Below, piece by piece: positions 42,727 to 47,078 of a stretch of 64,000 nucleotides of DNA. Numbering within the stretch: the first letter of the stretch is position 1; each line of letters begins with the position of its first letter. The position numbers and the translations under genes were made by a program. The stretch is from Escherichia coli. Its GTDB lineage: Bacteria; Pseudomonadota; Gammaproteobacteria; Enterobacterales; Enterobacteriaceae. The DNA is taken from assembly GCF_003018255.1 (NCBI RefSeq), contig NZ_CP027440.1. One strand, 5' to 3'. The notes below the pieces were generated by a model, which worked only from the letters and a program-made list of their open reading frames with translations, searched no databases and was not told the DNA's origin.

Positions 42727-42850
42727 CATCTCTCTGTGCGCAGTACCTCCTGTATTATTGTGGTGGCGGTCGATATTCGCACTGGCAAAAAAACGTGCTT
42801 GAATATCTGTTGAAACCCTTTAACAAAGCACAGGAGGCGTTGCGCGAACG

Positions 42851-43258
42851 ATGAACATTAGCGATGTAGCAAAAATTACCGGCCTGACCAGCAAAGCCAT
42901 TCGCTTCTATGAAGAGAAGGGGCTGGTGACGCCGCCGATGCGCAGCGAAAACGGTTATCGCACCTACACGCAGCAGCATCTCAACGAACTGACCTTACTG
43001 CGCCAGGCACGCCAGGTGGGCTTTAACCTGGAGGAGAGCGGCGAACTGGTGAATCTGTTTAACGATCCGCAGCGTCACAGCGCCGACGTCAAACGTCGTA
43101 CGCTGGAGAAAGTGGCGGAGATCGAACAGCATATCGAAGAACTGCAATCCATGCGTAACCAGCTGCTGGCGCTGGCGAATGCCTGCCCCGGTGATGACAG
43201 CGCCGACTGCCCGATTATCGAAAATCTCTCCGGCTGCTGTCATCATCGGGCGGGGTGA
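42851..43258 (+). CDS. cueR: Copper-responsive MerR-family regulator
   Basis: 135-aa product [26 protein letters not shown]... with C-terminal metal-binding [10 protein letters not shown]. Confidence 0.97.
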
Positions 43259-43989
43259 TTAAGGCTTGCGAAAATAGTCGTCCATTATTTTCGTCAGCTC
43301 CGGACGTTCCCCGTCATCATTGATGGCAAAATCCAGAAAAAAAGCATCTGCTTGCGGCGTTCGGTTTTGCGCCATCAACCGGAAGGTGAGGGGGCCTGAC
43401 CAGGTTTCGGATGGGCTGATGTGCTTATCAGGGCCGAAACTCTCCCATGCGTTGGGCGGTAATGTTTTGCACGCGGTGAGTTTTGGTATGTGGTATTGCA
43501 GCTCTGTTTTGTGCAGACATTCCCCGCCAGGAAATACCAGGGTTTGTTGCTCATCATTAAAATGGGTTGCCGTGCTGAGCACCAGTGTTTTGAGCGGTCG
43601 CCCTTCCAGCGCGGCGGCAGTAGCCTTATGGTGTCCGTCGAGCAGAACGCAGAGATAGGAATCAGGGAGATACCAGGCCAGAGCGCGGGCGATTCCAGTT
43701 TTCGAGAGCAGACAAAAACCGGGCGGCTCCCTGTTCACCCTCCGCAAAACCGCTGTAGACAAATTCCGCACAGGTAGGGCAACCAGCCTCGGACCAGAAA
43801 CGTATTAACGGGACATCCTTGCCAGCAGAGCGAATGGATAAGACCGTGCGAGTGCGGATCGTAAATCACACATTGACGCAGAAATCCTTTCCCGGACTTC
43901 ACCGAAAAAATGACGCCCGCAGCGGTATTTTTCAGCAGACGTACTTCAGGTTTTCGAAAGGGGAAAAAGCATGGCCACTCCTTAGCCAA
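43259..43989 (-). pseudogene. Hypothetical gene split into two overlapping reading frames (43735..43989 then 43259..43804); apparent frameshift
   Basis: Two minus-strand ORFs in different frames overlap at 43738-43804; the downstream frame is open upstream of its first start codon; no recognisable family. Confidence 0.4.
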
Positions 43990-44060: not shown

Positions 44061-44267
44061 TTACCCATTAATCCCCGTTTGTACCGAAAGAATATGTTGC
44101 AAACTTTCTACCATAATGCGCCCCGACTGAAATAAGCCTTCCTGGATTTCATTGTTAACATTCACAGCGTGAACCAGGGAGGCTAATAACACCACTTGCA
44201 AGAAGGCAAAAATAAACGCACCGATAATCATAATATGCGTCAGGGGGATTTTCCTTTGCTCCTTCAT
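44061..44267 (-). CDS. Small single-pass membrane protein (68 aa), hypothetical
   Basis: Start overlaps the upstream lipoprotein stop (ATGA); one hydrophobic helix IMIIGAFIFAFLQVVLLASLV. Confidence 0.5.
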   Translation of the reverse strand: MKEQRKIPLTHIMIIGAFIFAFLQVVLLASLVHAVNVNNEIQEGLFQSGRIMVESLQHILSVQTGING

Positions 44268-44686
44268 TTTAAATAACCCACAAACTGGCCTTCTTTCATT
44301 AAGGCGACTTTTCCTGTGTGATGATAAACAATGACATTATACAGACCCGACTGATAAACCGTGGCATCGGCATTATCTTCATCTATGGCACATAATGAAT
44401 CATTGAGATAAGCAAAATTCTTACTACTCATTCTAAAGGTCATGCCAAATCCTTTATAAATGGCTTTTTTTGCCGCCTGGGCATGTTGTGCGGCTTCTGC
44501 ATTTTTAAATGCCTGCGCTTCAGAAGCACTTAAAATAGCCGTCTGGCGCTGCTGTTCTGCGAGATAACAGGTGTCATGGCTGACGCCCTGCGCCTGACAA
44601 TCTGCGATGCGGGAAGCGGGTGAGCTACAGCCAGCCAGTAATATAACCGCCAGCAGGGAAAAGGATTTAATGGAGCTATTCATCAT
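44264..44686 (-). CDS. Putative lipoprotein (140 aa), hypothetical
   Basis: Signal peptide with lipobox LLAGC; 4 Cys; downstream of the autotransporter gene on the same strand. Confidence 0.6.
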   Translation of the reverse strand: MMNSSIKSFSLLAVILLAGCSSPASRIADCQAQGVSHDTCYLAEQQRQTAILSASEAQAFKNAEAAQHAQAAKKAIYKGFGMTFRMSSKNFAYLNDSLCAIDEDNADATVYQSGLYNVIVYHHTGKVALMKEGQFVGYLK

Positions 44687-44771
44687 TGTTAACCTTAAAT
44701 AATGTGCGAATTAATGAAGAGGTGAAACCCGGCAAGCTTCCTTGCTCTTATTTATATTGAGGATTGAAATA

Positions 44772-45788
44772 TTAGAACGAATATCCTACGCCGACACCTG
44801 CGCCGAAATCAGATTGCGTATCCGCAGAAATACCGGCTTTAAGTACCGTATGCGTTCCGGCATTAAAAGATGTTCCGACAGACACCGCAGATTCACCGTT
44901 GAAGGTTCCCGCTCCCGCTGACACCATCATCACGTCACCGGTTTTAACCTGTGGTTGTGAGGCGATAGCGATGGCAGATGCAGTTCCCGCATTGGCTTCT
45001 TTACGGTTGTCCTCAACTTCGTTTTTCAGCGAACTGTAATGGTTATTGAGCGTGTTAATTTGTTGGCTGTTATCTGCGACCCGTTTTTGCGTGTTGCTTA
45101 ACTGTTGCTGCGTTTGTGCGGAATCTTGTCTCAGACTTTCAATTTGCTCATGTGCCTGGACAGACTTCTGCGCCAGACTTTGCATTTGTTTATCGTATTG
45201 AGCCCTTTCTTTTTGCTGTTGTGCTGCCACATCGGTTGTCAGTGCATTCATTTTCTGCCCTTGTTCCGTGGTAGTGCGCTGATTAGCCTCATTTTGAGCC
45301 GCCAGTCTGGCATTAATCATCTCCTGATAATGCGCAGTATTTTGCGTATCTCCAGTCGCGGCGAGCGTTTTTTGTGTGGCTACGATCTGCGCCTGTTGCT
45401 CTGTAATTTGCGTTTGCTGGGCATCAGTTACCGCAGACTGTCGGGCGTTGATCATGCTCTGATAACGGGCAGGTGTCTGTGTATCACCTGTAGCGGCAAC
45501 GGTTTTTTGTCCTGCGTCAGGATCTGTCTGGACAGTGGGAGTCTGAGTGGTATCAGGTGTTTCAGAAGGGATGTAGTGATGTTCAGTCAAATAGGTATAC
45601 GCAGCGGGGCTGTTGTCTGTGCGTTCTAAAAAGCGGGTAATCTTCTGCTCAATCTCCGATTGCGACATGCCAGAGTTAATGGCTGAAAGCTCTGTTGCCG
45701 CCGCTTCAATGGTATCACCAGCTAAAACAACAGGGCTGGATGTTGCTGAAATTATGAGTGCCAGTAAAGCTACGTTTACAGTTTTCAT
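44772..45788 (-). CDS. Trimeric autotransporter adhesin-like protein (type Vc, YadA-like C-terminal anchor), 338 aa
   Basis: Signal peptide MKTVNVALLALIISATSSPVVLA; Gln-rich coiled-coil stalk with a tandem repeat (ATGDTQ..YQ.MINAR); C-terminal anchor ...AGTASAIAIASQPQ...GAGVGVGYSF ending in aromatic residue. Confidence 0.75.
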   Translation of the reverse strand: MKTVNVALLALIISATSSPVVLAGDTIEAAATELSAINSGMSQSEIEQKITRFLERTDNSPAAYTYLTEHHYIPSETPDTTQTPTVQTDPDAGQKTVAATGDTQTPARYQSMINARQSAVTDAQQTQITEQQAQIVATQKTLAATGDTQNTAHYQEMINARLAAQNEANQRTTTEQGQKMNALTTDVAAQQQKERAQYDKQMQSLAQKSVQAHEQIESLRQDSAQTQQQLSNTQKRVADNSQQINTLNNHYSSLKNEVEDNRKEANAGTASAIAIASQPQVKTGDVMMVSAGAGTFNGESAVSVGTSFNAGTHTVLKAGISADTQSDFGAGVGVGYSF

Positions 45789-46154
45789 TCATTTTCTCTT
45801 GTTCAAAATAAGTCGCATTAATGTTTCTATAAGAAACAAATAATATTATTTTAAGAAATAAACTGCGTTGCAATTTAATCGAAATCTACGCCGCCATTTG
45901 TGTGATGTAAAGCGCATTTTTGTCTGGTGTAAGCGTAAACACCACCAATAAGAAACAAAAAATGTTTCTTATATAAATAAAATCGAAAATCATTTTGTGC
46001 TCTTTCAATGTAAAAAAGAGTAAAGACTTGTTTTGATAAGCGAAATAAATTCTGTTTCTGGACTAAACGTGAAGCGGTTCCTGATGTGTGCTAAAATGCG
46101 TTTCTTTGATAAATCTCAATTTTTAAGAGGTTTACGCCAGGCAGGAAAATTTAA

Positions 46155-46517
46155 ATGAATGAATTTGAGAAGATTTTTAATGAAATGAATCTGGACCGGG
46201 CATTGTTACCGATCCTTTTTCGTTCGAACCGGTCGACAGTGTGGAAGTATTTAAGCGGCGATAGTACGGCTCCTGCCTCTGCCATGTCGCTGATCATGCT
46301 GTTGCAGTTGATCCAGAAACGAAACCCCGATCTGTTAGCCGAATGGTTAACGCTTTCTGATTTCACCATTCCGCCAGAAGTTTACCTGGACCAACCTGAT
46401 TACTGGAAAGGGTGGGTGTATACCCAACACAAGGTCAATAAAAACGTCCTGGAATATCTAAAAAAACACTATCCGGATGAAGACCAAAAAAGTATGGGTA
46501 AAGGCCGGGAAGAGTAA
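46155..46517 (+). CDS. Hypothetical protein (120 aa), divergent from the autotransporter operon
   Basis: ORF with ATG start after an AT-rich 365-bp intergenic region; no family recognised. Confidence 0.4.
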   Translation: MNEFEKIFNEMNLDRALLPILFRSNRSTVWKYLSGDSTAPASAMSLIMLLQLIQKRNPDLLAEWLTLSDFTIPPEVYLDQPDYWKGWVYTQHKVNKNVLEYLKKHYPDEDQKSMGKGREE

Positions 46518-46519
46518 TT

Positions 46520-46620
46520 TTGCCTCTACTCGGCTATATGCCGGATGCGGCGCAAGCGCCTTATCTGGCCTACGATTCGGGCATATTTTGTAGGCATGAT
46601 AAGACGCGCCAGCGTCGCAT
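46520..46620. repeat. REP/BIME elements (two inverted REP units) at the island/ybbJ junction
   Basis: gccggatgcggcgcaagcgccttatctggcctac ... gtaggcatgataagacgcgccagcgtcgcatcaggc. Confidence 0.75.
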
Positions 46621-47078
46621 CAGGCGATGACCGCACGGATAATCAGCGTTATCCCTTCTATCGCAATCACCTCAACATGCGTACCTGCACTGAGATCCTC
46701 GCTGGCGCTGACAGGCCATGAACTGTCACCGACGCGCATATGACCACGCCCGTTGACCAGCGGAGATTCCAGAACAAAACGTCGGCCAATCAACTGCTGC
46801 CCGCGCTGGTTTAAATGACTGTCGCTGTGCTTTTGTTCGCGCACCCGCCGCGACAACCATTTCCACCACAGCCAGGCGGCGAGCAGCGTCAGGACGGCAA
46901 ACATTACCCCTTGCCACTCCCAACCCAGCGGCAGCAACCAGACCACCAGACCGGTAATCACCGCTGCCACGCCGCTCCACAACAGATAACCATTGCCGCC
47001 CAACATCTCGGCTGCCAGCAGCAAACCGCCGAGACTTAGCCAGAAAATATGTGGATGAACGACCATTAACTCCATCAT
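46620..47078 (-). CDS. ybbJ: NfeD-family inner membrane protein
   Basis: 152-aa product overlapping qmcA by 4 nt. Confidence 0.85.

Follow-up and report, generated by a model that had tools for sequence, protein, structure and literature searches.

A 64,000-nucleotide stretch of Escherichia coli DNA (contig NZ_CP027440.1 of assembly GCF_003018255.1), here called the window, carries three co-oriented open reading frames (ORFs) on its minus strand at positions 44061–45788. The first encodes a 338-residue protein with a YadA-type membrane anchor (44772..45788), the second, directly downstream, a 140-residue lipoprotein (z0638; 44264..44686), and the third a 68-residue single-pass membrane protein (44061..44267), whose ATG overlaps the lipoprotein stop as ATGA and is thereby translationally coupled to it. 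In these respects the ORF calls agree with an earlier note on this DNA, which had described the three genes as an arrangement that it did not recognise. The locus is, however, a known one, O-island 29 (OI-29; S-loop 43) of enterohaemorrhagic E. coli (EHEC) O157:H7, and the autotransporter gene has been published as gmrA. The cassette also extends beyond three genes, as a fourth, divergent gene on the plus strand, encoding a 120-residue putative helix-turn-helix (HTH) protein (z0640; 46155..46517), belongs to it. Coordinates below refer to the minus strand unless stated otherwise.

The 338-residue protein starts with a predicted Sec signal peptide (residues 1–23; 45720..45788), which by inspection reads MKTVNVALLALIISATSSPVVLA↓GD, with a lysine at position 2, a hydrophobic core and V-L-A ahead of the predicted cleavage site (arrow). 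At the other end lies a YadA-type membrane anchor (residues 279–338; 44775..44954), to which Pfam YadA_anchor (PF03895) aligns over its whole model (positions 1–60 of 60, E = 2.6e-11). In a sequence search of the PDB, the anchor matches the transmembrane domains of AtaA (E = 1.5e-6) and Hia (E = 1.9e-5). The C-terminus, GAGVGVGYSF, closes with the aromatic residue of an outer-membrane sorting signal, a terminal phenylalanine that is normally needed for such sorting. Signal peptide, full-length anchor and terminal phenylalanine are all intact and conserved, and the signal peptide and anchor proposed in the earlier note are both upheld. The autotransporter annotation itself is not new, as RefSeq already names the protein ‘YadA family autotransporter adhesin’, and its best PHROG match is a prophage ‘adhesin’ family (E = 4e-21).

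Behind the signal peptide, the passenger begins with a conserved domain of about 60 residues (residues 24–85; 45534..45719), which has no Pfam match, is 40% identical to the N-terminus of a 633-residue YadA-anchor protein of Pseudocitrobacter, and is detected by an iterated hidden Markov model (HMM) in eight loci. Its presence contradicts the idea that the passenger is nearly all stalk. The domain is followed by two tandem 45-residue repeats (residues 99–143 and 144–188; 45225..45494), with 22 of 45 residues identical, including 14 of 18 in the part quoted by the earlier note; the internal repeat is thus real. Its DNA counterpart is a 90-nucleotide direct repeat, 70% identical, at a spacing of 135 nucleotides, and Tandem Repeats Finder scored no DNA tandem repeat in the gene. 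A Gln-rich segment (residues 190–275; 44964..45221) leads as a predicted coiled-coil stalk into the anchor, and shows a 3.5-residue hydrophobic periodicity with a power of 56 against a shuffle mean of 16.5, a value reached by 4 of 1000 shuffles. The coiled-coil stalk proposed earlier therefore holds for this segment but not for the repeat region (residues 100–190), in which the same test found no heptad periodicity. Apart from the anchor, the Pfam scan gave coiled-coil noise, with no YadA head, neck or stalk motif (YadA_head/Hep_Hag, YadA_stalk/HIM), so that the Hep_Hag and stalk motifs for which the earlier note had advised a search are absent from the scan. By its sequence, the 338-residue protein is a trimeric autotransporter (type Vc), short and headless. 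We note that proteins of phages of Escherichia, Pantoea, Yersinia, Erwinia and Enterobacter, both lytic and temperate (H76–H87), have C-termini that match the YadA anchor at 32–41% identity; their annotations read adhesin, tail protein or receptor-binding protein.

Primers from Supplementary Table S2 of the paper that describes gmrA (PMC5826968) were mapped onto the window. The gmrA deletion arms correspond to positions 44734–44771 and 45789–45827, and enclose the YadA-anchor ORF with single-base precision. At 44263, adjoining the lipoprotein stop, is the end of the z0638 arm; the published z0638 deletion begins at 44264 and hence also takes away the ATG of the 68-residue ORF. The z0640 arm ends at 46154, adjoining the divergent 120-residue ORF. 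The expression primer begins at the ATG of the pre-protein (45765–45788), and the 3xFLAG primer directly adjoins the final codon (44775). Because the deletion arms flank the ORF exactly, GmrA is the autotransporter: the two are one gene, and this demonstration is new. In the literature searched there is no mention that GmrA carries a YadA anchor. In an earlier comparative paper, the Sakai orthologue, ECs0548, is listed as a ‘Saa-like protein’ among adhesion genes (PMC2323221). The gmrA paper, relying on a ‘DNA-binding domain’ predicted by CDD, treats the protein as an activator that binds DNA in the cytoplasm (PMC5826968), and reviews up to 2024 repeat this assignment as a transcription factor. 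What reviews present as a transcription factor for EHEC flagella is a protein that every sequence criterion tested places among the trimeric autotransporters of the outer membrane. The GmrA assignment needs to be revisited, unless the protein is one with a remarkable dual function.

The arrangement of the genes was compared across species by scanning one genome per species, which gave 78 loci in which ORFs were called and each cassette protein was sought with iterated HMMs; species counts refer to the 37 in which the lipoprotein has a full-length homologue. In 24 of the 37, the lipoprotein gene is immediately preceded, on the same strand, by a YadA-anchor ORF, a divergent HTH-gene homologue is found in 17, and both occur together in 16. 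The z0640 homologues, 45–74% identical, are divergent from the autotransporter gene in other, distant genera as well. Among the genera are Escherichia, Pseudocitrobacter, Rahnella, Hafnia, Yersinia, Ewingella, Enterobacter and Phytobacter. The chromosomal setting varies: in Pseudocitrobacter a recombinase adjoins the cassette, in another lineage it is flanked by fetA and qmcA instead of cueR and ybbJ, and in Enterobacter thiamine and sucrose genes are nearby. In Rahnella woolbedingensis, two autotransporter–lipoprotein pairs follow one another (L024:4206-8748), Pseudocitrobacter faecalis has two consecutive YadA-anchor genes followed by one lipoprotein gene, with a serine recombinase adjoining (L006:801-4532), and Enterobacter asburiae has the autotransporter and the lipoprotein only; one individually inspected context is a stand-alone lipoprotein. 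As judged from these comparisons, the conserved core is the autotransporter, the lipoprotein and the divergent HTH gene. The co-occurrence of three genes predicted by the earlier note holds for the first two, but not for the 68-residue protein, which has homologues in 3 of the 37 species and is not a general partner. In E. coli, the linkage agrees with Table S3 of PMC5826968, in which all three annotated OI-29 genes are expressed in Dulbecco's modified Eagle's medium (DMEM) and drop together to zero on HeLa contact. The linkage, across genera, of the autotransporter to an undescribed lipoprotein family and to an HTH gene is new here.

Within E. coli, the island sits between cueR and ybbJ, a junction that is empty in K-12-type genomes. 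Its GC content is 0.36–0.49, compared to 0.53–0.57 in the flanks, and neither the ORFs nor the RefSeq annotation include an integrase or phage genes in the island. Of 5426 complete E. coli genomes, 1416 have the pair of lipoprotein and 68-residue genes, exclusively on the chromosome. A query with all three genes matches the same 1416 genomes, 1028 of them over at least 80% of the query length; among the listed matches below 80%, the alignment ends partway into the autotransporter gene, which indicates allelic differences towards the N-terminus of the passenger. The alleles observed are 338, 477 and 600 residues long in E. coli, and 415 and 579 residues in other Escherichia species. From 338 to 600 residues, the alleles have their ends in common and diverge between them, a pattern that a surface-exposed fibre should show. 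Roughly one in four complete E. coli genomes has the cassette, O157:H7, UTI89-type and avian pathogenic strains among them, and a surface protein with length-variable alleles would be relevant for typing and antigen studies.

The second gene of the core encodes, as the earlier note had it, a cysteine-containing lipoprotein, with the lipobox LLAG↓C and a serine at position +2. In the family alignment, the lipobox cysteine (Cys20) is invariant and never followed by aspartate, and two further cysteines, Cys30 and Cys40, are nearly invariant and lie in the motif SRMADCQAQGVSxDTCYLAEQNRQ. Under the Lol sorting rule of E. coli, which is applied to the residue after the lipobox cysteine, the missing aspartate predicts an outer-membrane anchor with the protein facing the periplasm. 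The N-terminal module would be a helical module of the disulfide type, and the AlphaFold model has a C-terminal domain of eight beta strands with a predicted local distance difference test (pLDDT) score above 90. Each module is also found without the other in further small proteins. Searches of Pfam, NCBIfam and the PDB assigned the lipoprotein to no family, and the significant matches in the AlphaFold DB are almost all enterobacterial and named ‘lipoprotein’ or ‘uncharacterized’. Homologues outside Escherichia are 35–70% identical. The family is small, with 143 clusters at 50% identity among 1.84 billion representatives, 22 of them at E ≤ 1e-30.

The 68-residue protein has a basic N-terminus followed by one hydrophobic span, and is lineage-restricted: its homologues were found only in Escherichia, Shigella and Pseudocitrobacter, and in a database search only in Escherichia and Shigella. 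An unrelated, conserved soluble ORF of about 75 residues takes its place in Rahnella, Serratia silvae and an uncultured enterobacterium, where it is likewise coupled to the lipoprotein gene (MKKHHTDQF.HL.PEQQ..CLK.L...E.T.L..GV.G.AVSV...DGHTATLSKF…; L026:6420-6653, L027:6408-6641, L037:6492-6707, L040:1317-1529 and similar). This ORF has no NCBIfam match.

For the divergent gene, the helix-turn-helix evidence is consistent but sub-threshold. In sequence searches the 120-residue protein matches MqsA weakly (E = 0.12), and HTH_26 (E ≤ 0.1) and HTH_3 are matched by 6 and 3 of 13 family members, respectively. The predicted model has a four-helix N-terminal half, with a pLDDT of about 90 for residues 1–60; its best Foldseek match is the HTH of HigA2 (probability 0.98, E = 0.47), and the HTH domains of Aca2 and controller proteins are among the best (E ~0.5). 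Between this gene and gmrA lies a divergent intergenic region of 366 nucleotides with 31% GC (45789..46154), a candidate promoter and operator region. It holds 6 of the 13 AGAAAC/GTTTCT hexamers within 14 kb, at positions conserved in the Escherichia and Pseudocitrobacter loci, and 4 of the 11 AAGAAAC heptamers of the whole window. Two pairs of the hexamers are palindromic, GTTTCT-ATA-AGAAAC (~45823–45837) and AAGAAAC-N7-GTTTCTT (45950–45970). Promoter-like hexamers at 45911..45883 and 45873..45845, and a terminator-like hairpin at 43972..43988, about 70 nucleotides downstream of the 68-residue ORF, come from a consensus scan and are not above chance, for the hairpin as judged for the region.

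Taken as a whole, the most probable explanation, in which we have considerable confidence, is that OI-29 is a horizontally acquired, low-GC insertion encoding a headless trimeric autotransporter and a lipoprotein that acts on it, with an indirect effect on motility. As inferred from the family, the 338-residue protein would be exported by Sec and assembled via the Bam machinery, with three chains contributing four strands per anchor to a 12-strand barrel in the outer membrane, and a short fibre would be displayed on the cell surface. The passenger comprises the N-terminal domain of about 60 residues, a polar stalk of variable length with the two 45-residue repeats, and the heptad coiled coil that runs into the anchor. 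Because the gene order recurs across genera, the most likely target of the lipoprotein is the autotransporter, on which it would act at the periplasmic side of the anchor, in biogenesis or stabilisation. Its role would be like that of TpgA for AtaA, with an unrelated fold. The 68-residue protein would be an inner-membrane, lineage-specific accessory, and for the reported motility phenotype an indirect cause, through the envelope protein or its precursor, is the more likely one.

Two helper systems provide the nearest comparisons. In the SadA–SadB system of Salmonella and E. coli, an enterobacterial trimeric autotransporter likewise sits beside the gene for a small lipoprotein, and SadB raises surface display of its autotransporter (PMC3953254). 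However, sadB lies upstream of the autotransporter gene, and SadB is a 213-residue protein of the inner membrane (aspartate at +2) built from a trimeric coiled coil and a MATH/Ig-like domain (PMC3953254), whereas the lipoprotein gene here lies downstream and encodes 140 residues with a helical, cysteine-pair module and an eight-strand beta domain. Identity with SadB was rejected on the serine at +2, the downstream position, the different fold and the absence of a sequence match in the PDB. In the AtaA–TpgA system of Acinetobacter, the helper gene is immediately downstream, as it is for 91% of tpgA-like genes, and TpgA binds the periplasmic face of the AtaA anchor (PMC12523085), which serves as our working analogy. 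TpgA combines a BamE-like (SmpA/OmlA) domain with a peptidoglycan-binding OmpA_C domain, unlike the lipoprotein here; Pfam finds neither domain in any of the 18 family members checked, and identity with TpgA was rejected as well. AtaA itself has 3630 residues and head domains, in contrast to the 338-residue, headless protein. Saa, Eib and UpaG/EhaG have the anchor family and a coiled-coil stalk in common with it, but it is much shorter, lacks the YadA head and stalk motifs of Pfam, and has a distinct N-terminal domain and dedicated neighbour genes. In a 2026 global survey, SadB and TpgA are the only described helpers of trimeric autotransporters; the survey required a YadA head domain, so that headless autotransporters such as the 338-residue protein fall outside its dataset. 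Our analysis makes the lipoprotein a candidate for a third, unrelated helper family.

Several observations weigh against the explanation favoured here. Purified His-GmrA shifts the fliA promoter in gels, specifically and with competition, with flhDC and rpoS as negative controls, and chromatin immunoprecipitation with quantitative PCR (ChIP-qPCR) gives a 7.75-fold enrichment at the fliA promoter (PMC5826968). Deletion of gmrA leads to loss of flagella, which is complemented in trans, and introduction of gmrA into K-12 increases motility (PMC5826968); if plain envelope stress were the cause, production of the protein should reduce motility rather than increase it. Deletion of the whole island left adherence to HeLa and Caco-2 cells unchanged (PMC5826968), and the literature searched yielded no surface-display, trimer or membrane-localisation data for the 338-residue protein. 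The published binding data stand unrefuted by sequence analysis. Finally, for 13 of the 37 full-length homologues the lipoprotein gene has no autotransporter gene beside it, so a strict dependence of the lipoprotein on the autotransporter does not hold.

The stand-alone genes also bear on the strongest alternative, namely that the lipoprotein is not a partner of the autotransporter but an independent periplasmic protein, such as a MliC/PliC-type inhibitor, that is carried by the same islands. Such independence would agree with the separate occurrence of its two modules in other small proteins, and the eight-strand beta barrel of MliC/PliC recalls its C-terminal domain. In sequence, however, the lipoprotein does not belong to that family: the profile alignment with E. 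coli MliC (the sequence compared was checked against 2F09) covers the signal peptide only, and MliC/PliC was rejected on this basis. More generally, the same-strand adjacency to a YadA-anchor gene in 24 species, which persists in varied contexts, and the duplication of the pair in tandem in Rahnella argue for a partnership, and we consider an independent lipoprotein unlikely.

The next alternative is that the published description is correct, and that GmrA is a cytoplasmic transcription factor acting at the fliA promoter, with its autotransporter features vestigial or part of a dual function. To the gel shift, ChIP-qPCR, complementation and K-12 motility gain noted above, the same study adds epistasis with fliA and deletions of the orthologues in eight strains (PMC5826968). 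A cytoplasmic activator does not fit the location predicted for the 338-residue protein, whose signal peptide, full YadA anchor and terminal phenylalanine are intact and conserved. The mature protein is acidic (isoelectric point 4.9), and neither Pfam nor NCBIfam finds a DNA-binding family in it, only coiled-coil matches such as SMC; among the Pfam matches, ‘DNA’ appears in one name alone, that of the sub-threshold coiled-coil family TMF_DNA_bd (E = 0.074), and to equate it with the CDD prediction of the gmrA paper would be a guess. The constructs are relevant too. In pET28a, the insert begins with the ATG of the pre-protein, which places the N-terminal His tag ahead of an uncleaved, intact signal peptide, and in the ChIP construct, expressed from pTrc99A, the 3xFLAG tag directly follows the terminal phenylalanine, where it should mask the outer-membrane sorting signal. 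From this layout we infer that neither tagged protein could follow the native export route, and the DNA-binding data may reflect such constructs. Direct transcriptional activation as the native function appears improbable to us.

A second hint of a link to DNA binding comes from the relatives of the autotransporter in Rahnella and Ewingella. The orthologous YadA-anchor proteins there carry a conserved N-terminal extension of about 40 residues (…RNTQII.AY.AGN.NK.ELARYFGVSASTIRRVL), followed by a hydrophobic stretch ending in A-x-A. Carriers are found in Rahnella (L018:4734-5939, L022:3750-5936, L023:4153-5925, L024:4206-5954, L027:5028-5927 and L028:4275-5957), in Ewingella (L042:4085-5869) and perhaps in Yersinia aleksiciae (L032:4989-5861), and RefSeq proteins contain the extension, e.g., WP_229893474.1. 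Residues 11–43 of the extension match HTH_28 weakly in Pfam (E = 0.0027), along with many other HTH families, in the same protein in which the YadA anchor is found at E = 1.8e-10. With 317 synonymous against 224 non-synonymous codon differences, the HTH-like extension appears to be under purifying selection. To our knowledge, it is unlike the extended signal peptide region (ESPR) motif. The N-terminal 97 residues of a Rahnella autotransporter, which span the HTH-like extension, the signal peptide and the beginning of the passenger, were used as a protein query; this search gave no match even though these proteins are themselves in the collection, and is uninformative. The HTH-like leader on these Rahnella-type relatives is new here, and the E. 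coli protein does not have it, which counts against reading it in favour of the activator. Taken together, the published binding of GmrA to the fliA promoter and the HTH-like segment fused ahead of the signal peptide hint that the autotransporter family might be coupled to transcription, with an unexported precursor or an inner-membrane leader peptide acting on DNA. We regard this as quite improbable, still more so than direct activation by GmrA; if true, production or export of the fibre would be reported back to gene expression, e.g., of flagellar genes.

The remaining suggestion, that the cassette is an anti-phage or surface-exclusion module acting as a receptor decoy or blocking superinfection or conjugation, can draw on the related YadA anchors encoded by phages of Pantoea, Yersinia, Erwinia and Escherichia and on a weak TraV-like match of the lipoprotein N-terminus (E = 0.003, below the curated cut-off), but is very improbable, as PADLOC returned only weak coiled-coil matches to SMC-like proteins for the autotransporter and none for the other genes, and the island has no integrase or phage genes. 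With the unchanged adherence of the island deletion, the roles as minimal adhesin, phage decoy or surface-exclusion factor put forward in the earlier note are all unsupported.

Between cueR and the cassette lies a frameshifted remnant of a gene for a 407-residue hypothetical protein (43259..43938), a pseudogene in RefSeq with no family match in NCBIfam or PADLOC; the gene is intact in strain ABW_A19 (WP_000898667.1) and absent from O157:H7 and UTI89, and is thus strain-variable extra cargo. At the ybbJ edge, positions 46503–46662 contain repeats like repetitive extragenic palindromes (REP), with sub-threshold Rfam naRNA4 matches (~30–32 bits, compared to a gathering score of 59.5), and this stretch matches many sites in nearly every E. 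coli genome, some of them adjoining rayT. The other side of cueR is variable too: here it carries glsA–ybaT and a short frameshifted fragment (~42757–42854) that overlaps the start of cueR, and in O157:H7 and ABW_A19 type I secretion genes, for an HlyD-family adaptor and a permease/ATPase, are located upstream of cueR (L002:1-2655; L004:1-784).

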